From positions 1 to 64,000 of IMG/VR virus record IMGVR_UViG_3300044630_003053: a stretch of 64,000 nucleotides of DNA. One strand, written 5' to 3'. The notes under the pieces were generated by a model. That model made no database searches, was not told the DNA's origin, and saw nothing but the letters and a program-made list of their open reading frames with translations. Each line of letters starts with the position of its first letter. Position 1 is the first letter of the stretch. Shown here piece after piece: positions 42,795 to 63,296 of this stretch. Source of the stretch: a virus. A program made the position numbers and the translations under genes.

Positions 42795-42795
42795 T

Positions 42796-45052: not shown

Positions 45053-45115
45053 GATTTTTTAGTTTAAGTGTTAATTAATAATGTAAAGGTATTACAATAA
45101 TTTTATTATACCAAA

Positions 45116-45439: not shown

Positions 45440-45473
45440 ATAGTTCTCTCCCTTTCCGAGATTAAACCTAACT

Positions 45474-45926: not shown

Positions 45927-46102
45927 AATAGATTTTTTTTTGTGATTAATATTATAGTACAAAGATAATACTTTTTTATTACCTGCCAAATTTATTTTCA
46001 ACTTTTTTAAAAAAATATTTGCCGGCGTCATGCATAATCCTAAACATTACTGGGGTGTAATACGGATCTGATCGGCGCACGATCTGCAAAACTGGCTAAA
46101 CA

Positions 46103-46124
46103 TTACTGGGATTTACCCCAGTAA
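46103..46124. repeat. representative TTACTGGG...CCCAGTAA inverted-repeat hairpin, one of about 60 copies across 40.3-58.0 kb
   Basis: ATTACTGGGATTTACCCCAGTAA. Confidence 0.8.
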
Positions 46125-46196
46125 ACTTTCGCCTCAGGCCTGTGCAGGTACAGTGCACAGCAAAAAAAATCCCCACCTTTCGGTGAGGACATTAAA

Positions 46197-46997
46197 TTAA
46201 AGTTGTATGACAAACTTATTCTTTGTTAACTTATTTCGAACTCGTTTATATTTTAGTCCGACAATTACATTCTTTTTATCTTTATACCTCATATCGTATA
46301 AATCCCCATCGATTACTTTCCTATCCCAAAATGTTTTAGGTACTTTATTAAAAACAACCGCCACCCTTACATTCTTATTTAACATTGAGTGACACTCATT
46401 TAAATTGTGACCGCTATAAGAGAAAGTTAAATCGTAGTTCTTATATTTTTTAAGTAGTTCGATTCTTTTAGGAACCTTTGTATAATCGTAGAATTGGATG
46501 TGTTGAAAGTATTGTAAAATATTAACGGGTTTATCATTTACATGAATATAAAATGATTCGGGCGTTATATCTGATGTGTTATTCAAACGAACCGAAAATT
46601 TATAACCTAACTTCTTAGCTTTTAATTCTGTGGACTTAATTTCATCAAACATCCAATTAACAAAAAATTCCCTGTGTTCAAAAAACAATTTAGTTTTTGC
46701 AATTCGTGAACGATTAATTTTATCGTCCTCCATGTTCATCGTGTTCATCCCTGATTCATTCAAACATAACTTTGTACATTCTTTTGTTCTCATAGGGCAA
46801 ACCTCGTAACCGCTCATTTTTGCAGGAGCTAAGTACAAACTATATGTTAATTCATCGTACTTGAATGCCTTCTGATGTTTCGTCGTCATATTAACGGAAC
46901 CTAAATAAGATATCCCTGTTAATCTTTTTGCTTGAGCCTTAGTAGTGTAAATCATTTGTTTATTTTTTAGTGTAGTGAGTAATTGTTGTTTCTTCAT
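46197..46997 (-). CDS. hypothetical protein with Cys cluster (VCPMRTKECTKLC)
   Basis: ORF. Confidence 0.5.
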   Translation of the reverse strand: MKKQQLLTTLKNKQMIYTTKAQAKRLTGISYLGSVNMTTKHQKAFKYDELTYSLYLAPAKMSGYEVCPMRTKECTKLCLNESGMNTMNMEDDKINRSRIAKTKLFFEHREFFVNWMFDEIKSTELKAKKLGYKFSVRLNNTSDITPESFYIHVNDKPVNILQYFQHIQFYDYTKVPKRIELLKKYKNYDLTFSYSGHNLNECHSMLNKNVRVAVVFNKVPKTFWDRKVIDGDLYDMRYKDKKNVIVGLKYKRVRNKLTKNKFVIQL

Positions 46998-47145
46998 CCA
47001 CCGACTCTGTCACCAAATCAAAATTGTTTTTTTTACACAATTTTTCCAATGCAGGTAGGCACGCATCGTAGGTTTCTTCATCGTCGAAGATTGCTACCAG
47101 TTCAGCATATTTGCCATTATCCAATTCGAAATAAACTTTTACCAT
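46960..47145 (-). CDS. hypothetical small acidic protein
   Basis: ORF. Confidence 0.35.
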   Translation of the reverse strand: MVKVYFELDNGKYAELVAIFDDEETYDACLPALEKLCKKNNFDLVTESVDEETTITHYTKK

Positions 47146-47420
47146 AGTGTTGTTTTTTTAGTGTACACAAATATACAACTAATACTTTTATAATCCAAAT
47201 TTATTTTTAAATATTTTTTTGAGTTAGCGCATGCGCGCAGCACTGGTCTAACTTTACTGGGGTAATACAACAGCAGATTACGCTGCAGATCATAGCTCCA
47301 ATAATTACTGGGATTCCCCAGTAAACTTCAGCGCTGGTCCGGGCTGTGTTTGCGCTGAAAGTAATACGCAAAAAAAAGGGTGAACATTTCTGTCCACCCA
47401 ATCGTTCACACTAATAAACA

Positions 47421-47735
47421 CTAATCACTAATTCGTTTTTCTGTTCTAATACACTCAGCTTCCCACTGCTCACATAGAAGTAATACATCTTCCAACACAT
47501 TCTCATTCAACTCCCAATAACTTTCTTCGTAGGTGTCGATAGCGTCAGAACTACTTGAACGAGGTTCGTACACATTTACTTCGATATAATCTTCTGTGAA
47601 ATATTCACCAAGCCCAACATAGTTACCTAATGTTCCGATAAGAATACTATTCTCACCTTCTAATTCTCCAATACTAAAACATCCGTTGACTTTTAGTATG
47701 TCTGTAATACGATTAATGATTTCTGAATTTTCCAT
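47421..47735 (-). CDS. hypothetical acidic protein
   Basis: ORF. Confidence 0.45.
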   Translation of the reverse strand: MENSEIINRITDILKVNGCFSIGELEGENSILIGTLGNYVGLGEYFTEDYIEVNVYEPRSSSSDAIDTYEESYWELNENVLEDVLLLCEQWEAECIRTEKRISD

Positions 47736-47737
47736 TT

Positions 47738-48049
47738 TTAAATTGATTTAGTATTATCCCAAATTATATTACCTTCCTCGTCATACAACTCCTCCGTAGG
47801 TTCTCCACCATTTTCTTCGGGTATTAAACCTTCAAGAGTTTCGTCAATATGTTCCCACGGCAATTCCGTGTTATCTCCTCTTTCACGGAACTCGATTGCC
47901 AATTTCTTAGCCTCCTCCAATGAGTTAGCCTCTATTTCAAATTCTGTACGATACCAAGTCGTAACCTTTGTGTCTAAATGAAAATTAAATGTTGTTAGGG
48001 TCTGTTCCATTTTCCATTGATTTTTTAATTGATATAATAAGTAATACAA
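47738..48049 (-). CDS. hypothetical protein
   Basis: ORF. Confidence 0.45.
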   Translation of the reverse strand: MYYLLYQLKNQWKMEQTLTTFNFHLDTKVTTWYRTEFEIEANSLEEAKKLAIEFRERGDNTELPWEHIDETLEGLIPEENGGEPTEELYDEEGNIIWDNTKSI

Positions 48050-48121
48050 CCATTACCGAAAACAATACAATAACTCCGAATCCTAAAAGTAGGCAATATA
48101 AGACATTCATAGTTTTAATTT

Positions 48122-48319
48122 TTAAAGTTCACGAATATACATATAATCTTCTAATTCTTCCAAAGGAATTCTTCCGTTGTTTGAGGAATAATATCCTTGT
48201 CTTCGATATCGTTCTTTCCACTTGTCAAATGCCTCAAATGCTTTTTCCTTTGAGGTGTAGTAAGGTCTATCGAATTCAATCGTAAACCCGTCGGGTGATA
48301 ATACTTCGTACCTTGTCAT
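48122..48319 (-). CDS. hypothetical protein
   Basis: ORF. Confidence 0.4.
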   Translation of the reverse strand: MTRYEVLSPDGFTIEFDRPYYTSKEKAFEAFDKWKERYRRQGYYSSNNGRIPLEELEDYMYIREL

Positions 48320-48320
48320 A

Positions 48321-48518
48321 TTAATCTTGTTTAATTAAAGTTTGAGAATACTCTTGTGTAATAAGTGTGTCCATGTGTTGTGAACCACTATAACGATTTA
48401 CTTCTCGTTGGGTTACAACTTGATGAGAACCGACGGGAATAAACCCTTCGTTAATGTACTTGTTTACTTTTTCGGTTAATCCTTCGGGGGATGAACTTGT
48501 TAATACTTTGTACTCCAT
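48321..48518 (-). CDS. DUF1737-like small protein
   Basis: MEYKVLTSSSPEGLTEKVNKYINEGFIPVG pattern; start trimmed because the promoter lies inside the longer ORF. Confidence 0.45.
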   Translation of the reverse strand: MEYKVLTSSSPEGLTEKVNKYINEGFIPVGSHQVVTQREVNRYSGSQHMDTLITQEYSQTLIKQD

Positions 48519-48844
48519 ATCTTTTTGTTTTAGTGTAAGACAAAGATAAAACAATAATATTATTTTACCAAATTTATTTTGAAGAATTTTCTCCAGCCCG
48601 ATCATCCCTAAACATTACTGGGTTGAATTGTTAGCCAGCGCAAATTTCCTGATCAGCGCGCGCAAATCTGGCTAATGTTTACTGGGGTAATACAAATAAC
48701 TCATGGACCAGGCATTGTGCGCAGGTGAAAATTACTGGGATGTCCCCAGTAAAATTCAGCGCTGTTTCTATGCAGCTACAGTGCACAGGTAATACACCCA
48801 GTAAACTTGTGACCCATCGCACAGTGTGACGGGGTTCCCCAAAC

Positions 48845-48873
48845 AAAAAACCCCCGAACTAAAAGTCCGAGGG
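48845..48873 (-). terminator. rho-independent terminator (module copy 1 of 3)
   Basis: minus-strand CCCUCGGACU uuuuag AGUUCGGGGG plus U6 with G-U pairs; identical 35-bp module also at 52545 and 56478. Confidence 0.6.
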
Positions 48874-48902
48874 TTTCACCAATATAATCTTTAACCTATG
48901 TC

Positions 48903-49763
48903 TTACACTAAATGTACAAGTTCCTTAAAGATTTGTCTTTCACGATTTCCGTAAGTTCCAAACATCTTATTTTCAGAATTGTCACCTTTACCCATACTAT
49001 GAGTTGTGTATTTTGTTACACCACTAAATAAACCCCAAATGTTATCACCCTTTTCGTTAATCTCACCATTAAGGTCAACATAGAATCTACTTAATTTATT
49101 TTGTGTCACGGTAGATAATGAATCAACATCCTTAATATCAACATTCTTTTCGATATTGAATAACGATTTGATTACTCTATCCTTGATAATATCATCGAAA
49201 CGAGTTTCACTCATTTTAACGATAGAACCGAACACATTCTTTTCTTCTTGTACTACACCCTCAATTTGTCGACAGATATCTTCTATCTTTAATTCCATAT
49301 TCTTTGTATGACGTACCTTTGAATCTAAATCCTTGTACACACCAAAGAACGTGTTTTGACAACTGATAGTTTTAGAACTAGGTCCGAACGATAATGAAGT
49401 CGAACCATCAAAAGAATTAATCCCAGTAACATAACCCTCGATTCTATCCGTCCCCAAAGTTAAGTCGTTTGATTTTAATTGAACGAATACTTTTCGTCCA
49501 CCACCGAACAAACCACCTCTATGAACATCAAGTCCAGTTTGTTGGGATACTTTGAATAATAGTTCCATCATTTGGTCATTCTGATATGGCACATAACCAT
49601 TCGAGTGAATACCCAAGATTGTACTATCATCCTCACGAACGATACCAATTTTATCAGGGATAATAATTCCTGACGAAGTTTGAAGTCCTTCGGTACGGAC
49701 TTTCCAATTTAAACCAGTTCTATCCAAGAACTGATTAACCCGATTGTTTTCTACGATTTCCAT
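48903..49763 (-). CDS. DUF932-like phage/plasmid protein
   Basis: N-terminal LDRTGLNWKV...GIVREDDSTILGIHSNGYVPYQN pattern. Confidence 0.45.
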   Translation of the reverse strand: MEIVENNRVNQFLDRTGLNWKVRTEGLQTSSGIIIPDKIGIVREDDSTILGIHSNGYVPYQNDQMMELLFKVSQQTGLDVHRGGLFGGGRKVFVQLKSNDLTLGTDRIEGYVTGINSFDGSTSLSFGPSSKTISCQNTFFGVYKDLDSKVRHTKNMELKIEDICRQIEGVVQEEKNVFGSIVKMSETRFDDIIKDRVIKSLFNIEKNVDIKDVDSLSTVTQNKLSRFYVDLNGEINEKGDNIWGLFSGVTKYTTHSMGKGDNSENKMFGTYGNRERQIFKELVHLV

Positions 49764-50017
49764 CTGTTTAATTTTTATGGTTTAATAAATGATTGTATGA
49801 CAAAGATAAATTAATCTGGGATATAATCCAAATTTATTTTTAAGAAATATTAATTATTTTTTTCCTCCTAATCCACCTGTGATCAGAGCTCCCAATATTA
49901 CTGGGTAATACTTGACGATACCCCAGTAATTTTACGGGACGATCAGGTCGAGAAAAATTCTTGGACATAAAAAAACCCCCGACAGAATCGGAGGTCTTAT
50001 TAAAGTAGGTGGTTTTA

Positions 50018-50338
50018 TTACACCAACAAATCTTGTACTGAATGTTCGGAAGTTTTTTCATCCCACACATCATCATTCCAATCTTCACCGACTTGGGTAC
50101 AAGTCTTGTAGAAAATTTCAACAACACCATTCTCGATGGTGACAACTCCTTCGGTTCTCTCGTTGATAGGAATCAAATCCTTTTCAACAAGAAACAAAAG
50201 TACGAGTTCGTACTCCAAAAATTGGTCGGTGTTCTCCGACTCAATGTATTCAACTTGTCCTTGGAAATCCAAGGAGAACTCAAACTCCACATTAGAGTTT
50301 AGAGTTTTTTCGATTTGGGAAGTGAACAAAGTGTCCAT
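50018..50338 (-). CDS. hypothetical acidic protein
   Basis: ORF. Confidence 0.4.
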   Translation of the reverse strand: MDTLFTSQIEKTLNSNVEFEFSLDFQGQVEYIESENTDQFLEYELVLLFLVEKDLIPINERTEGVVTIENGVVEIFYKTCTQVGEDWNDDVWDEKTSEHSVQDLLV

Positions 50339-50754
50339 AGTGTGTAGGTCTATTGGTTAGTAGACAATACAAATATAAAAAAGAAATTCCGTTTTACAAT
50401 ACATTTATGAAAAATTATTTTACTTTTTTTCTGACCCTGGTAATCCAAATATATTACTGGGTAATACAAGAATTCCAGTTCGGGGACCTACTGGAAATTA
50501 TTACTGGGATGTCAAGTTTTCAAATCAATAAACTTGACACATGTTGTAATAAAGTAAGTCAAAAACTTCACTTTTTGACACCTATTATACCCCAGTAAAG
50601 TAATACGTCCGAACCGTCGCGTCGGAAATTCTAACACACACTATAAACTCCCCAGTAAAGTAATACACCTAACCGGTCGAGGACCTGAGGTATGAACAAA
50701 AAAAAAAGGATAGTCTTTCGACTACCCTTCTTCACCTTTCCAACCTATGTATTT

Positions 50755-51315
50755 CTACACAACTACTCCTTCTAAATGTTGTAATACGGACTTACCTTCA
50801 TCCCAACAATCATTCTCACTATAATAACTTCCACAACATTCAACTAATGTTTTGTGTTCGTGACCTTTATTACAAGTTTCAATTTCATAAACTTTGTATT
50901 GATAAACTTCACCCGTTAAGTATTCATCATAAATTCTAACTTCACTATTCATAATCAAACTTAAATGTTCTTCACCCCTTTCAAATTCTTTACCACACAT
51001 TAAGTTCAATTGTTTTTCACTTATGAAAACCCAACCAACTTGTCCACTATCCCATTGACAACTGAACGGACTTGTGGATATAGTTATACCACTATGGTCG
51101 TACATATACAAAGGTTTAATCAAAAGGACTTTATGGTCACTTTCAATTTGTGACTTCAATTCATCCCAACTATCAAAGTCAACACTTTTGTAGTCAGTTT
51201 TGTCACCAATATCGTACCTTTTGTGAAAACAAATCATTGTAGTAATGTTATCCCACTCGGTACGAGGATTCATTGGGTCGTTATCGTGTTCGACAACTAA
51301 TTCATACTTTCTCAT
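50755..51315 (-). CDS. hypothetical Cys-rich protein (start at MRKYELV)
   Basis: ATG 51339 lies inside the TATATTTGTGTACAC promoter element. Confidence 0.45.
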   Translation of the reverse strand: MRKYELVVEHDNDPMNPRTEWDNITTMICFHKRYDIGDKTDYKSVDFDSWDELKSQIESDHKVLLIKPLYMYDHSGITISTSPFSCQWDSGQVGWVFISEKQLNLMCGKEFERGEEHLSLIMNSEVRIYDEYLTGEVYQYKVYEIETCNKGHEHKTLVECCGSYYSENDCWDEGKSVLQHLEGVVV

Positions 51316-51597
51316 TTTAATGTTTTTTAGTGTACACAAATATACAACTAATTCGGTTATATCAAAAATAAATTTGTTAAAATATTGTCAAAGAATTTTG
51401 GATACCCGTGAAGGTAAAATAATTTACTGGGATGTATGACAAGGATACCCCAGTAATAAACCTGCTTCCGTCTTCTGGAGATGGTCGTTCTTGTAATACC
51501 CCAGTAATAAAAACAGATGGACGGAGATGGAGAAATTTTTGAACAAAAAAAATCCACCCCTTTCGGAGTGGACTTCGGTTAGTAGGGGAACTAACCT

Positions 51598-52128
51598 TTA
51601 AATGAACTCGTAAATGTTTCCGTTGTATGACACTTCTTTAACATTATCCAAACTTACCGATAAGGTTTGTACCTTTCTTTCACTCGGTTGATTTTTGTAA
51701 TTGTTTGACTTCACTAACCAACTTTCAAACAAAGTTTGGTCAATAGGGTTTCCCTCAAACTCAAATTCAACTTGTGGTTTCACTTCCATAAACCACTCGT
51801 ATTGAAGATAATACTTTTTTGTATTTTCGTTGTAAAGGATAACATTGTTGATGTGGTTACCAACTTTGTTTTCACTTACTTTGAAATTACCTTCACCACC
51901 CCCCTTAATTTCATTTCCGATTACTCGTTGTTCGTACTCACCACCGATTAAAACTCTAACCGATTTTTTCTTCACAACTTTTCCATAATACTTGTTCAAA
52001 CCTTCCCTACCCCCTTTGTTCATTTTTGGGATAGTGTGTGTAACTAAATTCATAAATGTAGGATTTTTAACCTCGTTCATCATTTTGATAAACTCACCTT
52101 GTAGGATTTTGAAACGATTTTTTTTCAT
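51598..52128 (-). CDS. hypothetical protein
   Basis: ORF. Confidence 0.45.
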   Translation of the reverse strand: MKKNRFKILQGEFIKMMNEVKNPTFMNLVTHTIPKMNKGGREGLNKYYGKVVKKKSVRVLIGGEYEQRVIGNEIKGGGEGNFKVSENKVGNHINNVILYNENTKKYYLQYEWFMEVKPQVEFEFEGNPIDQTLFESWLVKSNNYKNQPSERKVQTLSVSLDNVKEVSYNGNIYEFI

Positions 52129-52544
52129 AACATTATTTTGTTTATTTTTTCAATACTCTAAATTACAACTTTTATCCAATATAACAAAATATATTTAATA
52201 TTTTTTTATCCACATTCTTAATTTTTTTTTGTGGACAAATTGTGGATAACTTTTTTCCCCTTGATCCAGAAAATAAATTACTGGGGACTCTCTGACAAAA
52301 AATCTGTCCCGTTCAGGAAAACAATACTGGGGAAAACGAAAAAACATGTATCGATGTGTTGATGCAGGAAAACAATACTGGGGACGTAAAGAAAAAAAAT
52401 CTGTAGATCTACCTGTTCGATATTACTGGGGTGTAATACGTTTTACCCCAGGAAACTTTTCCTGGACGATCAGATCCAAGGTTCATTGTTGTGTAATACC
52501 CCAGTAATTTTTCCCTGGAGACTCAGGTGAAGATTCAGTAGAAA

Positions 52545-52574
52545 CAAAAAACCCCCGAACTAAAAGTCCGAGGG
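52545..52574 (-). terminator. rho-independent terminator (module copy 2)
   Basis: identical to the 48845 module. Confidence 0.6.
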
Positions 52575-52597
52575 TTTCAAAAATAATCGTGTTGAGT

Positions 52598-52810
52598 CTA
52601 ATACATTATTTCAAACTTATCTTCATCGGGAATTACGGATAAACTTCTTCCGTTATCCCAATTAACACCATAGTAACCCATATCATCAACGAATACAATC
52701 GTACCCATTGTGTTAGGTTGAATAGGGTTTGTCTTTGGGTCATCATCCATTAGAATCAATCTAATTCTTTTACCAACTAATTCTTTTCTAATTTTTAATA
52801 GTTCAAACAT
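52598..52810 (-). CDS. DUF4314-like protein
   Basis: GTIVFVDDMGYYGVNWDNGRSLSVIPDEDKF. Confidence 0.45.
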   Translation of the reverse strand: MFELLKIRKELVGKRIRLILMDDDPKTNPIQPNTMGTIVFVDDMGYYGVNWDNGRSLSVIPDEDKFEIMY

Positions 52811-52821
52811 TGTTATAGGTT

Positions 52822-53022
52822 TTATTCGTGAGAAAATAACATTTCCAATAAACCTAAAACGATAGGATGTACCTCATTATTGTTTGAGTTCCCCCATTGT
52901 TTGACTTCCCCATTTTCTTGGATGTGAAAGTTTGTCTTTGTACCATCGGTCAGTTTGAACCAACCCTTAACCTCATTGTTCCCAATGAAATTCATTTTTT
53001 GTGTTGTGATTTGTGTTTCCAT
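52822..53022 (-). CDS. hypothetical small protein
   Basis: ORF. Confidence 0.35.
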   Translation of the reverse strand: METQITTQKMNFIGNNEVKGWFKLTDGTKTNFHIQENGEVKQWGNSNNNEVHPIVLGLLEMLFSHE

Positions 53023-53343
53023 TTGTTTATGTGTTTAGTACCCAAATATACAACTATTATTTTTATATACAAACATTATTTGTTAAAATTTTGTAAAAGA
53101 ATTTTCCCGTGTTGTAACATGAAATTTATTACTGGGGTAATACGAAGATGAGGTTTTTTCCAAGCAGACGACACGACATTACTGGGTGATGTCATACGTT
53201 CATCCCAGTAAAATTGTCCCATCTGCATGTGCGCAACGGCAGTTGCGTTTGCGCTGATTCGGTAATACACCTAAAAAGAGAAACCCCCACCATTTCTGAT
53301 GAGGGCTCACTTACTAACCACACTATTAAACAAAACTATTGTC

Positions 53344-53490
53344 TTACATATCGTACGCAAATGTAGGGATAAAAAACCAAAACATAAAGTAAAATGTTCC
53401 AATTATTAATATCAAACTAAAAATTGCATCCCAAAATTCCCTTTTGTCTTCCTTGTAGACCTCAATAATCGTCTTTATCATATCTTTCAT
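53344..53490 (-). CDS. small membrane protein
   Basis: internal start chosen to avoid a 146-nt overlap. Confidence 0.25.
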   Translation of the reverse strand: MKDMIKTIIEVYKEDKREFWDAIFSLILIIGTFYFMFWFFIPTFAYDM

Positions 53491-53491
53491 C

Positions 53492-53851
53492 TTAATATGT
53501 GTTTTGATTATAGGTATCATACGTGTTATAATTTCTTTGTCGATTGTTTTCTCGATACTCATTACGAGGAACACGTTGAGGGTATCTTGGTCGTTGTATG
53601 AAGGAGTTTTCCATTTGTTCATCAATCGGTTGAACATTCCAATCTAAATCCATTTGTTTAGAATTTGCCCAATGAATGTTATAAATTGTTTCAAGTCGTT
53701 CAGTTACAATGATATAACTATTCTCGTTGAAGTGAACTTTGGTCACAGGCTCACCAGTGTTCTTGTCAATGATTTCATACATTGAATGTACATTTTGTGG
53801 ATTCATTACCACCGGTCTTTTTGAATTTGAATTTGTCAGTTTGATTAACAT
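53492..53851 (-). CDS. hypothetical protein
   Basis: ORF. Confidence 0.45.
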   Translation of the reverse strand: MLIKLTNSNSKRPVVMNPQNVHSMYEIIDKNTGEPVTKVHFNENSYIIVTERLETIYNIHWANSKQMDLDWNVQPIDEQMENSFIQRPRYPQRVPRNEYRENNRQRNYNTYDTYNQNTY

Positions 53852-54237
53852 AACATTTAAATTTAAGAGTGAATAAATAATTTATAACATTTGAAATGTG
53901 AAATATGTCAAAAGAATTACCCAACAGATTGCACCAATAGTTAATGCTCGTTTTTCGTTATTTGGTATTTTCATTTTCTTGAATATGATTTATTGTTGAT
54001 ACAAAGATATAACAATTATATTAAACTTCCAAATTTATTTTAAGAAATCTTTTTTCGGGGGACAATCTATTACTGGGTTAAGCCCTGATGAAGTGGTAAT
54101 GTAGGTATTGGTACCGTCACACCCAAAATGGTTACTGGGTAATACATCCCAGTAAGTTATCCTGATGGGAAGATGATGTGGAAATTCTTGAGCATAAAAA
54201 ACCCCGTAGATACGGAGGTCTTCATTTAAAATCTTTA

Positions 54238-54906
54238 CTACTTTATCCGTCTTACAACGACCAAGACCATTGCCGCCCCCTTTTTAGCTCCGTCATTGTT
54301 GTCGAGATACTCGAAAATGTTTTCAATGTCATACTTGTAACCACCCTCACGATTAATAAAAGTTTTGATAACCCTCATAGTTTTACCATTGTCTTGACCT
54401 TTCGGTATTTGATAAGTGTTTAACTTATCGATAGTATTACAAAAAATTGTAGAAGGTCCTGGTGTAATTCGTTTGTTGAATGTTAGGGATATAGTACCAT
54501 CCACCTCGATAATATCGTTTCTAAAAATGTATTGGAGTTCCTGGTGAAATGTACCAATTTGACCACAATAGTCTAGTATCAAATGGCTATACTCCCCTTT
54601 GTTTGCATTGTATATAATATCCCCGATTGAACCAAAATAAAGTGAAGGAGTTTTCCCAACGAAATACTTCATTTTTTGTTTCTTGATATTTCGTTTTAAC
54701 TTGTCGAAGGTTATCTCATCTCGTTCGCACATAACATAGCGATACTTTCGAGAAACATCCTGGTAGATTGTTTTCTCAATTTCGAAATGTTCTGCAGGTA
54801 AAGAAAGGATTTTGTAGTTTTTCGTGTCCGAGTTGTGAATAGCGTGCACCATTATATTTCGTGCCGTGTTCTTGTTCGTTCCTTTGTGATTGGTGAAGGT
54901 GTTCAT
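54238..54906 (-). CDS. hypothetical protein
   Basis: ORF. Confidence 0.45.
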   Translation of the reverse strand: MNTFTNHKGTNKNTARNIMVHAIHNSDTKNYKILSLPAEHFEIEKTIYQDVSRKYRYVMCERDEITFDKLKRNIKKQKMKYFVGKTPSLYFGSIGDIIYNANKGEYSHLILDYCGQIGTFHQELQYIFRNDIIEVDGTISLTFNKRITPGPSTIFCNTIDKLNTYQIPKGQDNGKTMRVIKTFINREGGYKYDIENIFEYLDNNDGAKKGAAMVLVVVRRIK

Positions 54907-55239
54907 ATCATAACATTAAGGTTAAAGAATACACAAATATAAAACTAATTCCATTATATACAAAATAAAAATGTTAATCTTTTCTAAAAATTTATTTATC
55001 GGTCTGACGGGAAAGTTTATTACTGGGGAAATGAAGATGAAGATTTTCTGTAAGAGTAAAAAATCATTTACTGGGACACTCCACCCAGTAATTTAATACT
55101 GATGATCATCGGAGATTTCTTCAGACTTCACGGAGCGTAACCCAGTAAATTATCCGGATGGGAAGATGCAGGTAAAATTCTTGGACACAAAAAAGGGGTA
55201 CCATTTCTGATACCCCAATTTTCACTAACACCACAAATA

Positions 55240-55500
55240 CTAATCTTTATAAACGATTTTATTTGTAATGTCTTTTATTATCTCTCGTATTGTATTACCC
55301 TTAACCCCATTCTCAACCATACAACCATAAATGTTGGTTATCATTGTATAAACGTGTTTAAAGTCACGATACACTTCACGATTACCCCAACTATTACCTC
55401 TCTTAATTGTTAGTCTCGTGGATTCCCAACCTTTCTTATTGTTAACGTAAATTGTTATGTTGAAATTAGTATCGTAATACGTCTTTCTATATGTTTCCAT
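55240..55500 (-). CDS. hypothetical protein
   Basis: ORF. Confidence 0.4.
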   Translation of the reverse strand: METYRKTYYDTNFNITIYVNNKKGWESTRLTIKRGNSWGNREVYRDFKHVYTMITNIYGCMVENGVKGNTIREIIKDITNKIVYKD

Positions 55501-55501
55501 A

Positions 55502-56137
55502 TTACTTAGTTAAGATACCCAACTTATGTAGGTCGTTGTAATTAAATGTGTTATTCAACTTCTTACCGAATATGTTTTCGTAAATGATTTCCATATTAAC
55601 CTTATTCAACTTCGGTTTCTTAATTCCATACTTCTCACAAAGTTTAACAAAGTTTCGTGTATCACAAACGATTTCAACATTCCTACTTTCTTCGGTATTA
55701 AACCATTGATTACCCGACTTGGTACCAACCCCACTCACACCAATAGTACAGAATTTAAATCCACCACAATCTCCCCACCAATTATCTTTCATATCCATTT
55801 CATACACTTTGGTAATTAGAACAAAGATATTCTCATTGTTCCAATGTTTTCTAACCACGATTTGACCTTCAACGAATTTTTTAGTGTCCTTCTTAACAAT
55901 CTTTTTAGTTAATCTTTCCACTTCTTCCTCGTAGATTCTTCTCCTCATCATATAATCACTATACATACTATCTTTGATTTTGTCCACTCTACTATTGAAA
56001 GAGGTTTCAGTTTGATAATACTTGTTCTCCAACTCCTTGATTTTTTCTTTTGTCATTAAGATTTCATTCTCAAAATTTCTTAATGTGGTCGTTTCGTCTT
56101 TACGAGGTCGACCAACCTTTCTTTTTAATGTTTCCAT
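55502..56137 (-). CDS. hypothetical protein with N-terminal GRPRK AT-hook-like motif
   Basis: ORF. Confidence 0.45.
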   Translation of the reverse strand: METLKRKVGRPRKDETTTLRNFENEILMTKEKIKELENKYYQTETSFNSRVDKIKDSMYSDYMMRRRIYEEEVERLTKKIVKKDTKKFVEGQIVVRKHWNNENIFVLITKVYEMDMKDNWWGDCGGFKFCTIGVSGVGTKSGNQWFNTEESRNVEIVCDTRNFVKLCEKYGIKKPKLNKVNMEIIYENIFGKKLNNTFNYNDLHKLGILTK

Positions 56138-56477
56138 TTGTTTTGTGTTTTAGTGTTCACAAATATAAAACTAATTCCATTATATACAAAATAAAAATGT
56201 TAAAACTTTCTAAAAATTTATTAACCGGTAAACGGGGGATAATGTATTACTGGGGAAATGAAGATGAAGAATTCCTCAAGAGGTGAAAACGATTTTACTG
56301 GGATGTATTACCCAGTAATTGATTTACGTCCATGATGGTCCCACGACTCGTAGTTTTCTTCGCATATCCCAGTAATGTAATACCGGTGATCGTTATAAAT
56401 TTCTTCAGACTCTATCTTCAATATCCCAGTAATATGTCATACCTGTCCAACAGTGTGACGGAGATTCTTCCACAAAC

Positions 56478-56506
56478 AAAAATCCCCCGAACTAAAAGTC
56501 CGAGGG
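56478..56506 (-). terminator. rho-independent terminator (module copy 3)
   Basis: near-identical to the 48845 and 52545 modules. Confidence 0.55.
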
Positions 56507-56537
56507 ATTCAACCAAAAAACCTATGAAAACATAAAC

Positions 56538-56876
56538 CTAACTCTCAATCAACTTATCGATGACATCAACCAATTCGTCGAACATAATGTCGTGGTCAAT
56601 TGTTTCAACCACAACCATCATATTATTTATCAATCGAACTTCATAATAATCCAAACCATTAAGAGTAATCAATACAAAATGTTTCCACTTCATACCCGTT
56701 ACTTTTAATAAAAGACCTTTAACATAATCATCCTCAGTAAGACCAATTCGAATAACCTTTTCTACACCCCAACACATATAAGGTACACCCCCTTGTGTTT
56801 TGGTTAGTACATACATTGTTTCGTTTGGGTTGAACTCTCGTACACCCAACTCCATTAGTGTTTGTTCCGTTGTCAT
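56538..56876 (-). CDS. hypothetical protein
   Basis: ORF. Confidence 0.45.
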   Translation of the reverse strand: MTTEQTLMELGVREFNPNETMYVLTKTQGGVPYMCWGVEKVIRIGLTEDDYVKGLLLKVTGMKWKHFVLITLNGLDYYEVRLINNMMVVVETIDHDIMFDELVDVIDKLIES

Positions 56877-56949
56877 ATCATTTTGTTTTTAGTGTATACA
56901 AATATAACACTATTACCAGTTTATTCCAAAATAAATCTGTTAAACTTTT

Positions 56950-57640
56950 GTGAAGTTGAGGTCCCCCTGAAATATATTCCTGGGGTAACACCCCAGTAAG
57001 GTTTTTTGAAAAAACAAGAAAATTTTTTTTATACGGGTTTTTCATCCCAGTAATTTTATTTCAATTTTATAATTTTTTTCTCTGTATTTTTTTTACCCCA
57101 GTAAGGTTTTTTTGAAAACCAGGAAAAATTTTTTTTTTATTCGTAAAAATAATATTACTGGGGTGTTGAAATAAAAAAACTCAAAAAAAATTTGGATGTA
57201 CTGGAATTAGTAAAAAATCGGAGAAAAGTAAAACTATATTACTGGGGTGACGAAATGAATATTTTTTTTTTTAGAATATAAAGATAAAAATTTTTTTTGT
57301 TGTTTACAAACTTTTTTTATTACTGGGGTAACTTTTTTTAATGACCCAAAAATCCAGAAAACCCTGGAAATCCGAAAACATTACTAGGGTAACTTTTTCT
57401 GATCGTCGGAAAATTTTATTAATAACCTTACTGGGTTGTTTTCCAGTTGAGTCGTCTACCGGATGTCGTGAAAAACATTCCTGGGGTAACCACCCAGTAA
57501 CTAATTCATACAACCTTGTATTTTTTTTATACTCCTCGGCATTACCCCAGTAAACAAAAACAAGGATCAGGGAAAAAATCAGGTTTCCTTCCAAAACAAC
57601 CCAGTAAGGTTTCCTTCCAAAGTTACCGTGTCGTGGACGA
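56950..57640. repeat. dense field of about 12 TTACTGGGG(T)/ACCCCAGTAA repeats in A/T-rich spacer at the divergent strand-switch
   Basis: read directly. Confidence 0.8.
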
Positions 57641-57708
57641 GGAGTGGGAGAAATAAAAAACCCCCACCGAATTAACGATGAGGGTTTAGGGGGAACACAA
57701 CTAATATT

Positions 57709-57828
57709 TTATCTCCACAAGTTTACTTTACCAACAACACAATGAGGTGTCTTCGGTCTGTGATAACGATTCATTACACAAGACGAAAACAATACGATGA
57801 CCATAACTAAACTGAAAACCTTTTTCAT
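57709..57828 (-). CDS. small putative lipoprotein (39 aa)
   Basis: MKKVFSLVMVIVLFSSC lipobox-like; hand-translated. Confidence 0.3.
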   Translation of the reverse strand: MKKVFSLVMVIVLFSSCVMNRYHRPKTPHCVVGKVNLWR

Positions 57829-58084
57829 ATCATTTGATTTAGAAGACAAAGATATAACATTAGTTTCATTATACCTAATATAAAAGTTAATGTTTTCATA
57901 AGGTTCATGGACCCGGATGGAAACAGGGGACTTATTACTGGGTAGACCTCCCTATACCCATAGGTGGGGGGTCCCCCCTCCCCGTATCCCCCCTTATATA
58001 GGGGGTATTTTGACATCCTAATAGGGGGGTCAATGCCGTAACAGAAATTTTTCCGGAAATTTTTTGGGAAAATTAAGGTTTTCC

Positions 58085-58150
58085 ACTGCTCACATTTAAG
58101 ACTTTTTACTGCGCACATTTAAGACTTTTTACTGCGCACATTTAAGATTT
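58085..58150. repeat. 23-nt tandem repeat x3 (ACTGCGCACATTTAAGACTTTTT)
   Basis: read directly; iteron-like. Confidence 0.8.
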
Positions 58151-58213
58151 AAAAATAAAAATTTTTGGGATTTTTTTGAGAAATTCGACTTTTTTGAGTA
58201 TATTATATACCAT

Positions 58214-58720
58214 ATGAGAATCTGTATAGAATGTAATATTAATAAAGATTTAACTGAATATCGAGACAATCGAAGAAAATGTAAATCATGTTATAATAAA
58301 AGACGACACGTTCAAAAGAAGAGTAGGATACAAACGGATGAAGTGTATCGTGAAAAGGTTAAGGAATGGGACCGAAAAAAAATGAAACGTAGACGTTCTG
58401 AAACAGACACTTTATTTTATTATAAAGAAATGTGTAGAAATATTTGTAGAAATTCATTTAAACGAAAGAACTTTATTAAGACAAGTAAAACTGGTGAATT
58501 ATTAGGTTGTGATTGGTTAACATTTAAAGTATACATAGAATCCAAATGGCAAGATGGAATGACGTGGGATAACCATTCTTTAAAAGGTTGGCATATTGAT
58601 CATATCATACCTATCGATTTTGGGAAGACTCCTGAGGATGTTGCTAAACTATGTCACTATACAAACCTCCAACCATTGTGGGCAGAAGACAACTGGGAGA
58701 AGTCCAATAAAATTCTATAA
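58214..58720 (+). CDS. HNH homing-endonuclease-like protein
   Basis: N-terminal Cys pairs; GWHIDHIIPI...NLQPLWAEDNWEKSN His-Me finger. Confidence 0.7.
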   Translation: MRICIECNINKDLTEYRDNRRKCKSCYNKRRHVQKKSRIQTDEVYREKVKEWDRKKMKRRRSETDTLFYYKEMCRNICRNSFKRKNFIKTSKTGELLGCDWLTFKVYIESKWQDGMTWDNHSLKGWHIDHIIPIDFGKTPEDVAKLCHYTNLQPLWAEDNWEKSNKIL

Positions 58721-58865
58721 ATTAGAACTATATTTCTAATTCCTATAATATCCCTATACATTCGGGGGGTAAAAACCTGTAAATGGAAATATATTTCTAA
58801 AAAGTGAAAAAAAAATTTTCCAGAAATTTTCAGGAATATACTTATCTTTGTAAAAAATATATAAT

Positions 58866-58982
58866 ATGGCAACAACAGTAAGACCCCATAACTTCCAAAG
58901 GATTGTTAAAACAAAGAACGGTCCGGTGGTTAAGAACTGTATCCGCAAGGGACATACAAGAACCACAAAGAAAAGAGCCTAA
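58866..58982 (+). CDS. small basic protein (38 aa)
   Basis: own TATCTTTGT promoter (58835-58860) and own terminator; MATTVRPHNFQRIVKTKNGPVVKNCIRKGHTRTTKKRA. Confidence 0.4.
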   Translation: MATTVRPHNFQRIVKTKNGPVVKNCIRKGHTRTTKKRA

Positions 58983-58988
58983 CAGAAA

Positions 58989-59301: not shown

Positions 59302-60240
59302 ATGAAAATAATATTAACCGAACAACAATTAGATACCCTTACCGATACTCTTAAACCAAAGAGAGAAGATTGGAATAAGGAGAGGTTGATGAATTTGGTT
59401 AAAGATAATCCTAAGTATCTCGATGTTGAAGGTAATCCGTATGACTATAGTTTGGTTCAATATGATGTAAACGATAGAATTAAAGTTCGTAATGAAATAC
59501 CTATCAAATGTCACGCAAAATACGATTACGGTGATAAAGAAGGTCAAGAACACGGAGTGTTCCGTAAGATATTAAGAACGTGGGTTAGTCAACCGACCGC
59601 AAGTTGTCCACAATGTTTAGCACAAAGATTACGTAATAACTTTATTAAGAAGTCACGTGAAAGTCATCTTGATCCTGATAAGTATGATTATACTATGGTG
59701 GATTTCACCGACCCACGTTATATTATACCAGGTCGAGAAAGAGACGGACATCGAAGATTTTCCATTTTTTGTAAAACACATAATGAATTTTTTACTCAAG
59801 ACGCTAATGTCCATAAAAGAGGTGGAGGTTGTCCTCCTTGTGCTGAATCTAAAGGTGAAGCTGCAGTTGCAAAATATTTGGACTCTAAAGGAATATATTA
59901 TGAGAGGTATAAAAGATTTGCCGGACTTAAAAACAAATACTCACTTGAATATGATTTCTTTCTTCCTGACTATAAGATGTTGATTGAGTTTGATGGTGAA
60001 TTACATTTTGCACCGTCCAATCACACTAACGGTGAAACCAAATTTAAAACACAACAAATCAATGACCGTATTAAAGATTCTTATGTTATGGATAATCCTG
60101 ACATTGTTAGACTGATTCGTGTGTTTGTTAAAACCGATACTGAGAAAATTAATAACATTCCTGGTATATTGAACAAATTAATCTATATGAAAACAAACGA
60201 TAAAATCGTTTATAATTCAGATTATCCTAAAACAAAATAA
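59302..60240 (+). CDS. putative endonuclease with N-terminal Cys/His repeats and a DUF559-like PD-(D/E)xK C-terminus
   Basis: repeated C..H...C..C modules; EYDFFLPDYKMLIEFDGELHF. Confidence 0.4.
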   Translation: MKIILTEQQLDTLTDTLKPKREDWNKERLMNLVKDNPKYLDVEGNPYDYSLVQYDVNDRIKVRNEIPIKCHAKYDYGDKEGQEHGVFRKILRTWVSQPTASCPQCLAQRLRNNFIKKSRESHLDPDKYDYTMVDFTDPRYIIPGRERDGHRRFSIFCKTHNEFFTQDANVHKRGGGCPPCAESKGEAAVAKYLDSKGIYYERYKRFAGLKNKYSLEYDFFLPDYKMLIEFDGELHFAPSNHTNGETKFKTQQINDRIKDSYVMDNPDIVRLIRVFVKTDTEKINNIPGILNKLIYMKTNDKIVYNSDYPKTK

Positions 60241-60271
60241 AGTTTGTATTTATATAAAAACAAGATACAAT

Positions 60272-61345
60272 ATGTTAAAAGAACAAATTCCTACAGGTTG
60301 GCAAGGTGGTTTTCCATCTGAAAACCAAAAACAAATGTTATATCCTACCGCAGATTTAACTTCATTACCTATGTTGGGTAATATGGATAACATTAATTTA
60401 CTACAAAGACAATGGGGAGTTAAATGGCCAATGTTTAGTTGGAATACCCTAAATGGAGAAAAAGACCCAAAACGTTGTTATGTACAATTTGCTCCTTATA
60501 TTTCAAGAATAGGGTATACCAATGAAGGTAGAATCTATTCCATAATCTGTCCACAACAAGGAATGTGGATTGGGGATGAGATTTGTATCAATGTGGAAGT
60601 AACAGTTACGGGACAAAGAGGATGGGTTAATGAAGACACAAAAGAAATTGCTGCAGATATGATGGTTGAGGGAAAAATTTGGTTGACACCGGGTGAAAAT
60701 CAAGGTGGTCTATTAAGAGCAATTTGGCCATTATTAAAATATAGTTCTCATAAGTATCCTATCAACAAAGAGAATGCTATTCGTGTTTCAACACATCTAC
60801 CAGGAAATCCTAAAGAACCTATATTCCAACTTGGAAAGGGTTTATCTCCAAGATTTAAGAATCCTGATTTTGCCATAAAGGAAGAAGCATATAGTACAGG
60901 ACATATCAATGTGGAAATAGGAGAAGTGGTTCTTACAAATGACCACAAATTAGATAAGTTTAATCAATACTTTTTAAATCTTTTTAACTTAGGTACCGGT
61001 AATATGTTACAAAAAGGTAATGTATTATCGTGGAATTTATTTTTTGATTCACCTGAATTGGTTTCAATTCCAGAATGGCAAAATCACGCTGACTATTGGC
61101 GTACCTCTATAGGTGCCCATCACGGTTCACCAGGTGGTGAAGGAACAAGTCCAAGATATTTTGATGGAACCTATTTTGATACCAAAAATTTCGCCATTAA
61201 AGAGGTTATTAAAGATATTTTAAATCACGTTGTAAAAAACTCCACATTAAGGAAGGGTTTAATATTACTTGTAGAATATTGTCCTAAAACAATATTTGAT
61301 ATATTCTTAAAGAAAGGTGATCAATCTAAAACAAAAACACAATAA
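60272..61345 (+). CDS. hypothetical protein (357 aa)
   Basis: ORF. Confidence 0.5.
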   Translation: MLKEQIPTGWQGGFPSENQKQMLYPTADLTSLPMLGNMDNINLLQRQWGVKWPMFSWNTLNGEKDPKRCYVQFAPYISRIGYTNEGRIYSIICPQQGMWIGDEICINVEVTVTGQRGWVNEDTKEIAADMMVEGKIWLTPGENQGGLLRAIWPLLKYSSHKYPINKENAIRVSTHLPGNPKEPIFQLGKGLSPRFKNPDFAIKEEAYSTGHINVEIGEVVLTNDHKLDKFNQYFLNLFNLGTGNMLQKGNVLSWNLFFDSPELVSIPEWQNHADYWRTSIGAHHGSPGGEGTSPRYFDGTYFDTKNFAIKEVIKDILNHVVKNSTLRKGLILLVEYCPKTIFDIFLKKGDQSKTKTQ

Positions 61346-61348
61346 ACT

Positions 61349-61585
61349 ATGGAAGAAGAATTAATTGGAGCAATTAAATTATTTGCAGGAGGATACGTTC
61401 CTCAAGGATATGTAGAATGCAACGGACAATTATTAAACATAAGGGAAAATGAGGCGTTATATGTATTACTGCAAGATAGATACGGAGCAACACCAAATTT
61501 ATTTGCAGTACCTAAAATGACACCACCTATGGATGGTATGAAATACATAATGGCCATTCGTGGTATATGGCCAGCAAGACAGTAA
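61349..61585 (+). CDS. phage tail-collar domain protein
   Basis: FAGGYVPQGYVECNGQLL...YGATPNLFAVPKM. Confidence 0.55.
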   Translation: MEEELIGAIKLFAGGYVPQGYVECNGQLLNIRENEALYVLLQDRYGATPNLFAVPKMTPPMDGMKYIMAIRGIWPARQ

Positions 61586-61609
61586 TATTATAACAAAAAC
61601 AAATACACA

Positions 61610-62341
61610 ATGACAAAAGACGAAGTAATCTATAACGTACAATTAAGTGACGTTGTATATAAAGACCAAAAAGATATTGACTTCAAATCACTTGGATTAA
61701 CTTCCGTTAAGTGGATTGATGATAAGAAATCAGATACCCAAGGATTTGTTGCCATGAAAGGGAAGTCACTCTATGTGGTCTTCAGAGGAACGTCATCCAA
61801 GAAGGATGCTCAGAATGATGTATCCATCGACAAGGTTCCCTTCATCAATGAGGGTGATAAAGTACATGTTGGATTTAAGTCCTCTTGGGATGCCGTTAAG
61901 AACACCATCCTCAAAGACATCACCAAGATGAGTGGGTATAATAAGATTGTTGTATGTGGTCATAGTCTTGGAGCTGCAGTTGCTACTCTATGTGCTTATA
62001 ATCTTTCCCACGTATTTGAGGATACCACCATTGAATGTTGTACCATAGGAAGTCCAAGGGTCGGTAATAAGACCTTTAAGAACAACTATGACAGTCGTAA
62101 GATTAAAACCCTCAGAATCGTCCATAATAACGACCTGGTGACACGTTCTCCCAACATAGGGTACTATCACGTCAATCACATGTTACGAATCGACCACGAG
62201 GGTAATATTAAGAAATTTATGATTGATTGGGAACGTGCTTGGAATTTCCTTAAATCTATGGTTACCGGAAAGAACATTAAGGACCATATGACCGCTGGTT
62301 ATATGAGTTCATTAAAGAAGTGGTACGATAAACAACCATAA
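61610..62341 (+). CDS. class-3 lipase family protein
   Basis: VVFRGTSS ... CGHSLGAAVATLCAY (GHSLG nucleophile elbow). Confidence 0.75.
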   Translation: MTKDEVIYNVQLSDVVYKDQKDIDFKSLGLTSVKWIDDKKSDTQGFVAMKGKSLYVVFRGTSSKKDAQNDVSIDKVPFINEGDKVHVGFKSSWDAVKNTILKDITKMSGYNKIVVCGHSLGAAVATLCAYNLSHVFEDTTIECCTIGSPRVGNKTFKNNYDSRKIKTLRIVHNNDLVTRSPNIGYYHVNHMLRIDHEGNIKKFMIDWERAWNFLKSMVTGKNIKDHMTAGYMSSLKKWYDKQP

Positions 62342-62342
62342 T

Positions 62343-63296
62343 ATGAAAGTCATTATATCGGAGTCTCAACTAAGGACAATTATTGAACAACAAATTTTTA
62401 AACTTACCACACCCGAGCAAACCCTATTGGGTTTCTTAAATCGTTTCCTTAAAGGAGAAGACGGTGAATTTGAGAAGACACCAGCTGGTCAGTTAAAAAA
62501 GACCATGTTGTTCAATTCTAAGACCATATACCCTATGGTACAGAAGTTAATTGAGAAGAAAACCACCGGTAAGAAAACCTACGACGATAAGACTTTTAAT
62601 TCCCTGTTTATGGCCATGGATAAATCCATCACAAAGGAACAAAGATATATGTTCTTTAAGGAAGGTGAATCCATTACCAATGTGAAATATAACTCGATTT
62701 ACGAGCAGATGAATGATCTGGCCTTCGATAGAAGATACGGGACGGTGGATGCCGCAGAGAAATCTAATAGAGCAAATCGTGAGTTAATTGATGCAATTGG
62801 TGGACCACATAGAGTATTGGAGTTGATGTCCATTGGGTCCATATTCATTCCCGTGGTTGGTCCATTAATATCGATGGGACTTGGGTTTGCCGATTCGGCA
62901 TTATACATGAAAGAAGGTAAGAAGAAGGAAGCTGCGGTTGCTGCAATCTTATCTATATTACCACAGGTTGGTGAGGTGGTTAGTTCCATCCCAGCAGTAA
63001 AACAACTTGGACAGAAGGGGATGCAAGCCCTTGCAAATAAACTTGCCTCTAATATGGAACTTGGGATGCTTGAAAAACGTGCCCTTGAGGATATCCTAAG
63101 AAAGAAATCTATGGTTTATAAAGCCGTTCAGGATTATACAAAGAAAGCGGTTTATAACGGTTCACAGAAACTTGCAAAACTTCCTCCCACTCAGCAGGTA
63201 ATATTAAAGACCGTGGCTGATGGTGGTATTGGACAATTGAAAACAACTGTTAGAACTGCGGCTGTTGGTGGGATTGCAAATACGGTAACAAAATAG
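62343..63296 (+). CDS. hypothetical protein with Gly/Ala-rich hydrophobic C-terminus
   Basis: ORF. Confidence 0.45.
   Translation: MKVIISESQLRTIIEQQIFKLTTPEQTLLGFLNRFLKGEDGEFEKTPAGQLKKTMLFNSKTIYPMVQKLIEKKTTGKKTYDDKTFNSLFMAMDKSITKEQRYMFFKEGESITNVKYNSIYEQMNDLAFDRRYGTVDAAEKSNRANRELIDAIGGPHRVLELMSIGSIFIPVVGPLISMGLGFADSALYMKEGKKKEAAVAAILSILPQVGEVVSSIPAVKQLGQKGMQALANKLASNMELGMLEKRALEDILRKKSMVYKAVQDYTKKAVYNGSQKLAKLPPTQQVILKTVADGGIGQLKTTVRTAAVGGIANTVTK

Follow-up and report, generated by a model that had tools for sequence, protein, structure and literature searches.

A short asymmetric DNA word arrayed upstream of host-type promoters across an 18-kb gene block of a large uncultivated phage

The operators of P1 C1 and RK2 KorB occur as one or two sites per promoter, and the proteins that bind them are known. 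Origin iterons, such as those of lambda ori, P1 oriR and plasmid oriV, are found beside or within the initiator gene and occur nowhere outside the origin (and incompatibility loci). In Cluster A mycobacteriophages, the site of the repressor (gp71 in L5) is an asymmetric 13-mer present in >20 copies per genome, and its orientation follows transcription (PMC9283540). The PeSL elements of T4-like phages are small, consist of only a stem–loop and a sigma-70 early promoter, and mediate modular shuffling (PMC4122927). The untranslated repeat regions of T5 are unique, lie in the terminal repeat, and carry eight paired DnaA boxes (10.1101/866236). Here we describe a family of short repeats, with the motif TTACTGGGG and the core TTACTGGG, in a 64,000-nt window of viral DNA (positions 1–64,000 of IMG/VR record IMGVR_UViG_3300044630_003053). 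The stretch from 56880 to 58210 of this window had been flagged in an initial annotation as a candidate replication origin or regulatory hub. This stretch is the largest control region of an 18-kb gene block and lies outermost in it; it also holds the largest of about a dozen arrays of the motif. We judge that there is about an even chance that these arrays are operator-like sites for a phage DNA-binding protein that also serve as recombination joints.

The source is a large uncultivated phage with related contigs of up to 131 kb, a length reached by IMGVR_UViG_3300044846_003114. Relatives were taken from IMG/VR as contigs of 39–131 kb (L018–L025, L097, L104, L139 and L147–L150). Among phage records, no megablast match was found for the window and no tblastn match for a 633-aa protein. 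Genes occupy the plus strand from 1 to 39.7k, the minus strand from 40.5k to 56.9k, and the plus strand again from 58.2k, and the sign of the GC skew flips exactly at these coding-strand switches. The flagged stretch does lie at such a switch, as first annotated. The leftward 18-kb block (40.3–57.9k) comprises small accessory genes, probably of the early class. Its proteins are small and mostly of unknown function, and include DUF932, DUF4314 and DUF1737 members, a GP88-like protein and a protein with an Api92-like domain. No tRNA or tmRNA gene was found.

Array motif and promoter cassettes

When up to one mismatch is allowed, TTACTGGGG has 75 matches in the window, compared with 11.9 ± 3.3 expected and a maximum of 21 among shuffles. 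The exact 8-mer TTACTGGG(G) occurs 61 times in 40.3k–57.9k and not once in the other 46 kb, and in the related contigs, too, copies are restricted to the homologous block. The initial annotation had treated the repeats as a local feature of the flagged stretch set in a poly-A/T context. The context holds, with 12 A/T runs of ≥7 nt in 57000–57999 and ≤5 in any other 1-kb bin, and 14 of the matches fall within 56977–57943. The repeats are not local, however, since 71 of the 75 are spread over 40334–57943.

Information content places the conservation in an asymmetric word of ∼12–14 nt, A.A.TTACTGGG.G.T.A, which can also be written A-TTACTGGG-GTA (oligonucleotide forms TTACTGGGGTAA and TTACTGGGGTAATAC). 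No second conserved box is present within ±40 nt of the motif. With the information confined to these ∼12–14 nt, a bipartite promoter is excluded. Neither of the secondary motifs, CCRGRAAAW and TTTCCRGAWW, is enriched, and nothing relevant to the motif was found in the literature. The pentamer CTGGG occurs seven times outside the block where 18–22 are expected, and thus may be depleted there. The sequence ACTGGG is the BfiI/BmrI restriction site, which might account for depletion outside the block, but not for 61 copies inside it.

A TnpB-like ORF (open reading frame) of 455 aa (38325–39692) with Cas12f1-like TNB and OrfB_IS605 domains lies to the left of the block, and is preceded by a 66-nt tandem repeat of 2.6 copies (37985–38153; both within 37779–39711). 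The motif begins with TTAC, a known IS608-type target. RNA-guided targeting of the motif by this protein was considered and rejected: the slot holds three different unrelated genes in L147, L148 and L149, and its conserved flank CCGTTCACGG... bears no relation to the motif.

From 45.9k to 57.9k the copies are organized in 12 convergent arrays (13 if the double array of the flagged stretch is counted as two). Along the window, each array runs from plus-strand copies through a central inverted pair to minus-strand copies. The central pair has the form TTACTGGG-N4-22-CCCAGTAA, with a spacer of 82 nt in one case. Arrays contain two to nine copies, mostly 44–64 bp from their neighbors, and the two orientations are represented in similar numbers. 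In the direction of transcription, each unit presents a terminator, an array, a promoter, and then genes. The four units lying between 54.2k and 57.7k have mapped intrinsic terminators at 57687–57658, 56510–56480, 55216–55195 and 54217–54202.

Promoters following the arrays have the form TTTG-N18-20-TAnnTTTG and were mapped for all units from 45.9k rightward. They match the Bacteroidota consensus of a −33 TTTG and a −7 TAnnTTTG (PMC2483708). The list of 14 −7 boxes for the block includes 12 with a motif copy 61–90 bp upstream, at −80, −79, −67, −90, −77, −80, −79, −61, −79, −80, −71 and −81. Eight of these 12 copies sit at 77–81 bp. A second upstream copy is found near −128, and copies of the opposite orientation begin near −143. 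No array accompanies the promoters at 42200 and 44524.

The block also contains 10 singletons with an exact core (40763–45314 and 49422), many of them inside ORFs, and all 10 are co-oriented with transcription. Some lie 16–60 nt upstream of start codons. These singletons could indicate that a sigma factor or RNA polymerase specific to the phage uses TTACTGGGG as a promoter, or reads it as some other polar transcription signal. Like some single-subunit polymerase promoters, the motif has a run of G at its end. Nevertheless, this explanation is highly improbable. In the arrays, roughly half of the copies are directed toward the terminator upstream and not toward the genes downstream, and the arrays already adjoin strong host-type promoters. 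Moreover, the conserved nucleotides number only ∼12, and no phage RNA polymerase was recognized among the scanned ORFs.

A closer likeness is to the stoperators of Cluster A phages. In both systems a short asymmetric site (a 13-mer in L5, ∼12 nt here) is present in >20 copies at promoters and within or between genes. Orientation follows transcription in the mycobacteriophages; here all 10 singletons are co-oriented, and the arrays contain both orientations in similar numbers. The differences are also clear. The sites of this phage are confined to one 18-kb block, most belong to convergent two-orientation arrays 60–260 bp upstream of promoters that they do not overlap, and neither a repressor gene (∼40 ORFs scanned) nor evidence of a temperate phage was recognized.

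Conservation and turnover among relatives

The effect of divergence on the arrays is seen in alignments of the block with five relatives. Motif cores are 94.6%–98.6% identical, array spacers 69%–89%, and the rest of the block 83%–95%. Because the cores are so much better kept than the spacers between them, these alignments indicate that selection is on the word and not on the arrays as a whole. All six singletons covered by a relative of ∼89% identity are intact in it.

The differences between genomes consist of whole units or cassettes, with breakpoints in the arrays. L018 lacks two 61–64-nt units of the flagged stretch, and L020 lacks the cassette 54202–55140. L019 has an extra 750-nt cassette (terminator, gene and promoter) between two near-identical central pairs. 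In L022 the 930 bp from 57006 to 57934 are missing, and both breakpoints are at motif copies. The centers of inverted pairs also take insertions, as at 50509–50589 of the window and in L019 and L020, where a pair of 23-nt repeats has been inserted.

One explanation for this pattern is that the arrays are primarily recombination or mobility joints, either PeSL-like or as cassette ends recognized by a recombinase or nuclease, and that the motif is kept for cassette exchange rather than to control transcription. Inward-facing inverted copies flank every cassette, the extra cassette of L019 is bounded by 35-nt near-identical direct repeats, and the contigs of relatives break inside the block at repeats; the array-bounded indels and the insertion hot spots at pair centers are in keeping with this explanation as well. 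However, a core of 8–12 nt is too short for homologous recombination, and the spacers that would give the homology evolve fastest. No recombinase or integrase is present among the scanned ORFs, and neither the fixed distance to the −7 box nor the co-oriented intragenic singletons would be expected of joints. We therefore consider joints as the primary function of the arrays unlikely. An integron array, in which an IntI integrase accompanies promoterless cassettes set apart by attC sites, does not fit, as each cassette from 45.9k rightward has its own promoter and no integrase was recognized among those ORFs.

The resemblance to PeSL elements is real in two respects: a hyperplastic region has composite terminator/promoter modules that separate its small genes of unknown function, and these modules are points of indels or gene exchange between close relatives (here L018, L019, L020 and L022). 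Here, though, an additional conserved 12-nt site is present in 2–9 copies per array between terminator and promoter, and the promoters are of the Bacteroidota type. The system thus differs from both stoperators and PeSL elements in its confinement to one block, in its convergent arrays far upstream of promoters, and in having up to nine copies per array.

The flagged stretch and the origin question

The flagged stretch comprises a double array of 13 copies, which feeds the promoter of gene 56538–56876, together with one small lipoprotein-like cassette (Table 1). Beyond the arrays come an invariant G/C-rich element, a 23-bp repeat that varies, and, where the rightward block starts, an HNH insertion. 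The description of the flagged stretch as a regulatory hub is supported: two leftward Bacteroidota sigma-A-type promoters with their upstream arrays are present, as are a terminator and the start of the rightward block. The claim that 1.3 kb here lacks coding capacity has to be withdrawn, since a conserved ORF of 39 aa with its own −7 box and intrinsic terminator is present. This ORF differs from its L018 counterpart by one synonymous and one nonsynonymous change, and from that of L019 by six synonymous and three nonsynonymous changes. In L021 its place is taken by a different membrane-protein gene.

Table 1. Positions of the features in and around the flagged stretch (window coordinates)
Feature	Position	Strand	Details
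Motif domain, TTACTGGG(G)	40334–57942		∼65 copies, 61 exact 8-mers; coincides with minus-strand gene block
Promoter of first transcription unit (gene 56538–56876)	56899–56930	minus	Bacteroidota sigma-A type; −7 box TATATTTG 56899–56906; −33 TTTG 56927–56930; spacer 20
Array 1	56977–57104		Central inverted pair TTCCTGGGGTAACACCCCAGTAA (56977–56999), then copies 57046 and 57097 in the direction of transcription
A/T-tract-rich spacers of arrays 1 and 2	57002–57340		11 homopolymer runs of ≥7 nt
Array 2	57155–57607		Five copies one way (57155, 57239, 57320, 57381, 57428); central inverted pair 57478–57500; two copies the other way (57546, 57600)
Intrinsic terminator of lipoprotein-like gene	57658–57687	minus	12-pair stem, 6 GC pairs, T tail
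Lipoprotein-like ORF, 39 aa	57709–57828	minus	MKKVFSLVMVIVLFSSCVMNRYHRPKTPHCVVGKVNLWR; lipoprotein-type signal ending in Cys
−7 box of 39-aa gene promoter	57847–57854	minus	TATCTTTG; TAnnTTTG type
Solitary TTACTGGG copy	57935–57942	plus	81 bp upstream of the 57854 −7 box
Invariant G/C-rich element	57945–58065		∼125 bp; order CCCTATACCCATAGG, GGGGGGTCCCCCC, TCCCCGTATCCCCCC, TTATATAGGGGG, TAGGGGGGTCAATGCC, AAATTTTTCCGGAAATTTTTT
23-nt tandem repeat	58085–58147	plus	ACTGCGCACATTTAAGACTTTTT; period 23, 2.7 copies, 97% matches
Inserted HNH cassette	58145–58722	plus	HNH/endonuclease VII-like ORF 58214–58720, PHROG 1035
Second module copy	58751–58850	plus	CCCTATAC...GGGGGGT...TTTTCCAGAAATTTT; conserved in L018, L019 and L021

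Array 1 is conserved in L018–L021, with one unit fewer in L018. In array 2 the number of units differs in L018 and L019, and it is the central pair of this array that carries the inserted 23-nt repeats in L019 and L020, as two copies of inverted orientation. The solitary copy at 57935, the outermost of the motif domain, is invariant in six of six genomes. The A/T-rich spacers of the two arrays are present in L018–L021 and absent from L022, and the 300 nt from 57002 to 57301 have the lowest GC content of any in the window (21.3%). Two genes downstream of these A/T-tract-rich arrays, a 211-aa protein (55502–56137, minus strand) begins with the canonical AT-hook KVGRPRKD.

Clustered short direct repeats adjoining an A/T-rich stretch are a point of likeness to iteron-type origins, and an origin was among the proposals of the initial annotation. 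On this hypothesis, an initiator would recognize the TTACTGGGG copies and the 23-nt repeats as its iterons, and unwinding would take place in the A/T stretch at 57.0–57.3k. The most AT-rich 300 nt and the highest density of A/T runs in the window do fall here, many direct and inverted repeats gather at the divergent strand switch, and the cumulative GC skew has a local minimum. This minimum, at 57–58k, coincides with the strand switch, and therefore provides no independent evidence on replication.

Several other observations make an origin at this site improbable. The supposed iterons lie upstream of 12 promoters over 18 kb, whereas true iterons would be expected beside an initiator gene; no initiator-like gene is nearby, and the flanking ORFs have no replication-protein match. 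No DnaA box at ≤1 mismatch is present in 56–59k. The 930-bp deletion of L022 removes the whole A/T-rich part. Absence of the iterons in relatives had been named as a sign against an origin, and on this point the outcome is divided, because the 23-nt repeat is missing from this site in three of six genomes and is found upstream of promoters elsewhere, while TTACTGGG is conserved. Repeats with an A/T-rich stretch at a strand switch thus need not mean an origin, a warning that applies to annotation generally.

A conserved cluster of three DnaA boxes lies at 52.2k instead (TTATCCACA at 52206, plus strand; TTGTCCACA at 52230, minus; TTATCCACA at 52241, minus), spanning 52206–52249. It adjoins the 100 nt of the block that are richest in A/T (14% GC; all within 52127–52260), is identical in seven related loci, and occupies the place that a promoter takes in other cassettes. 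If a DnaA-dependent element exists in this region of the genome, then 52130–52260, as an origin-like site or a DnaA-regulated promoter, is a better candidate for it than the flagged stretch.

DnaA boxes inside the block (this trio and a single box at 39963) also bear on a comparison with T5. The flagged stretch resembles the T5 injection-stop region in bordering a block whose genes are small, poorly conserved and read by the host polymerase, with an HNH insertion adjoining. By this analogy the block would be a terminal pre-early region of first-entering DNA, and the repeats at its inner edge would act like an injection stop signal. The anatomy recalls the T5 description (10.1101/866236), down to an HNH gene inserted between repeat regions. 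However, the main repeat here precedes nearly every promoter of 45.9–57.9k instead of marking the boundary alone, the region contains a small gene, paired DnaA boxes are absent from it (none in 56–59k), and most of it is missing in L022. We consider this explanation very improbable.

The G/C-rich element marks the outer edge of the motif domain and is present in a single copy in each related contig. Nearly all of its columns are invariant in six genomes, whereas its flanks are only 70%–90% identical. The odd G/C block of the initial annotation lies within it, with GGTGGGGGGTCCCCCCTCCCCGTATCCCCCC at 57963–57993. No copy of the element in a prophage or host was found in 185,579 species genomes. 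A structured RNA in the G/C block was rejected, given that its fold has z-scores of −0.64 and +0.62, that none of 27 predicted pairs covary, and that no Rfam match reaches threshold. An 18-mer of the block, GGGGGGTCCCCCCTCCCC, occurs once each in L026, L027, L031 and L035, which are unrelated high-GC viral contigs. These matches are probably due to chance because the word is almost wholly G and C. A small palindrome at the left of the element, CCTATACCCATAGG (57951–57964), reads CCTATGGGTATAGG in L022 (∼8915–8928), where the loop is exactly reverse-complemented and the arms are kept.

Two palindromes of the form TTTTCCNGAAA had been reported, and both are present (TTTTCCGGAAA at ∼58047–58061 and TTTTCCAGAAA at ∼58813–58827), although their coordinates had been given 5–11 nt off and the 10-mer class is not overrepresented (3 found versus 3.2 expected). 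The first is invariant in relatives. The second belongs to a recurrence of part of the G/C element, CCCTATAC...GGGGGGT...TTTTCCAGAAA, at 58751–58827 ahead of the next plus-strand gene. It is followed by a −7 box, TATCTTTG (58843–58850), of a gene for a 38-aa basic protein (58867–58983). GGGGGGT by itself shows no enrichment across the window.

The three 23-nt tandem iterons of the initial annotation correspond to a real repeat. Its unit begins with TTACTG, which it has in common with the array motif, and it looks like a variant member of the array-repeat family rather than an origin iteron. At this site L021 has two copies, L018 has ∼1.6, and L019, L020 and L022 have none; L019 carries two further copies upstream of the 48.5k promoter. 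Another 23-nt tandem repeat in the window, TGACAATCTCGGAAGTAAAAACG at 34010–34071 (2.7 copies, 94% matches), is unrelated in sequence.

The HNH insertion measures ∼580 nt, has its left junction inside the 23-nt repeat, and is absent as a whole segment from L018. HNH-type endonuclease genes at 58214–58720 and 59302–60240 vary in presence among close relatives, and the plus-strand genes immediately right of the junction are mosaic between genomes. Further right, a two-gene module at 60245–62348 (a 357-aa protein of unknown function and a class-3 lipase) is common to otherwise unrelated viral contigs of 217–335 kb (loci L001–L017). Nucleotide identity is 77%–94% across the 357-aa gene and ∼67%–72% over the lipase part in some loci. 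Because sharing at 77%–94% identity extends to contigs otherwise unrelated, the sequence comparison suggests horizontal transfer of the module. These contigs, which were found via the 357-aa protein, were dropped as relatives since they have this module alone in common with the window.

Possible domain marks and the proposed operators

The motif is not the only sequence concentrated in the leftward block. There are 36 copies of the heptamer GTAATAC in the minus-strand genes' block (40231–56377), against one in the other 46 kb. Within the block, 30 copies are on the plus strand and 6 on the minus strand, whatever the orientation of the adjacent TTACTGGG, and the sites are 93%–94% conserved, compared with ∼90% overall. 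Both GTAATAC and the array motif occur in all reading frames, which speaks against a peptide-level explanation for either. The tetramer GATC is about four-fold underrepresented in the window (50 versus 196 expected). In the minus block, 16 of its 20 sites lie in the fast-evolving array spacers (46.0–57.6k), and GCGC follows the same pattern. The 11-mer TACCCCCTATA is found exactly twice in 64 kb, in inverted orientation at 39792 (plus) and 57997 (minus), at the two limits of the motif domain, and L019 and L022 have an altered version of the right-hand copy. Taken together, the bias of GTAATAC, the placement of GATC, and the presence of TACCCCCTATA at both edges suggest domain-wide marking of the block.

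At its left, convergent edge (39700–40560), the block has ∼800 nt of hairpin-rich noncoding DNA. This DNA contains four perfect hairpins, GGGGACC-GAAG-GGTCCCC, at 40197, 40246, 40414 and 40538, two related hairpins that covary in relatives, the perfect DnaA box at 39963, and two TTACTGGGG copies.

It is conceivable, though rather unlikely, that TTACTGGGG and GTAATAC together form a domain-wide address label for the 18-kb block, bounded by the G/C element and the hairpin-rich stretch and read by a dedicated phage factor. If this hypothesis is true, then the block would be treated unlike the rest of the genome, for example by silencing or insulation after the early phase, by selective protection, or by staged entry. 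This would be genome-domain control of a type not described for Bacteroidota phages.

The explanation that we prefer is that the arrays are operator-like. The sequences themselves show the anatomy of the arrays, their set distance from promoters, the selective preservation of the motif, its restriction to the block and the array-bounded indels, whereas we infer that a protein binds the sites and in which direction it would regulate. The block from 45.9k rightward is a series of cassettes, each consisting of an intrinsic terminator, a TTACTGGG array, a host-type promoter and genes, and the TTACTGGG sites would be docking sites for a sequence-specific DNA-binding protein, either encoded by the phage or carried in the virion. 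The central inverted pair would accommodate a dimer, and the flanking sites, at a spacing of ∼50 bp, could lead to cooperative higher-order binding. Such binding would place the promoters of 45.9–57.9k under common control, for example to shut off or insulate the block. Single co-oriented sites within operons would act on elongating polymerase in the manner of stoperators. As a by-product, the arrays would become joints at which cassettes are gained, lost or duplicated via recombination. In their reuse of one word at many promoters, sometimes as inverted pairs and sometimes far upstream, for coordinated control, the operators of P1 C1 and RK2 KorB are similar; instead of one or two sites per promoter, this phage has arrays of up to nine.

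Several observations weigh against operators. No recognizable helix–turn–helix or repressor domain was found among the ∼40 ORFs scanned, and no candidate for the binding protein emerged from them. Simple occlusion cannot be the mechanism because the sites, 60–260 bp upstream of the core promoters, do not overlap them. Up to 13 sites in one region exceed the need of an ordinary operator, and half of the array copies oppose transcription, unlike true stoperators. The spacing near −80 could result in part from the common descent of duplicated promoter cassettes rather than from functional constraint. Neither the strand-polar heptamer GTAATAC nor the invariant G/C element is explained by an operator model.

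Regulation in large Bacteroidota phages is almost unexplored, and the block described here offers a clean and testable regulon, in which a 12-nt word stands at a fixed distance from about a dozen host-type promoters and is kept while its surroundings drift. Knowing the protein that binds this word would show how the phage switches its accessory block, possibly including host-takeover or anti-defense genes, on and off. The arrays further illustrate how a phage genome takes in new genes as self-contained promoter–gene–terminator units.

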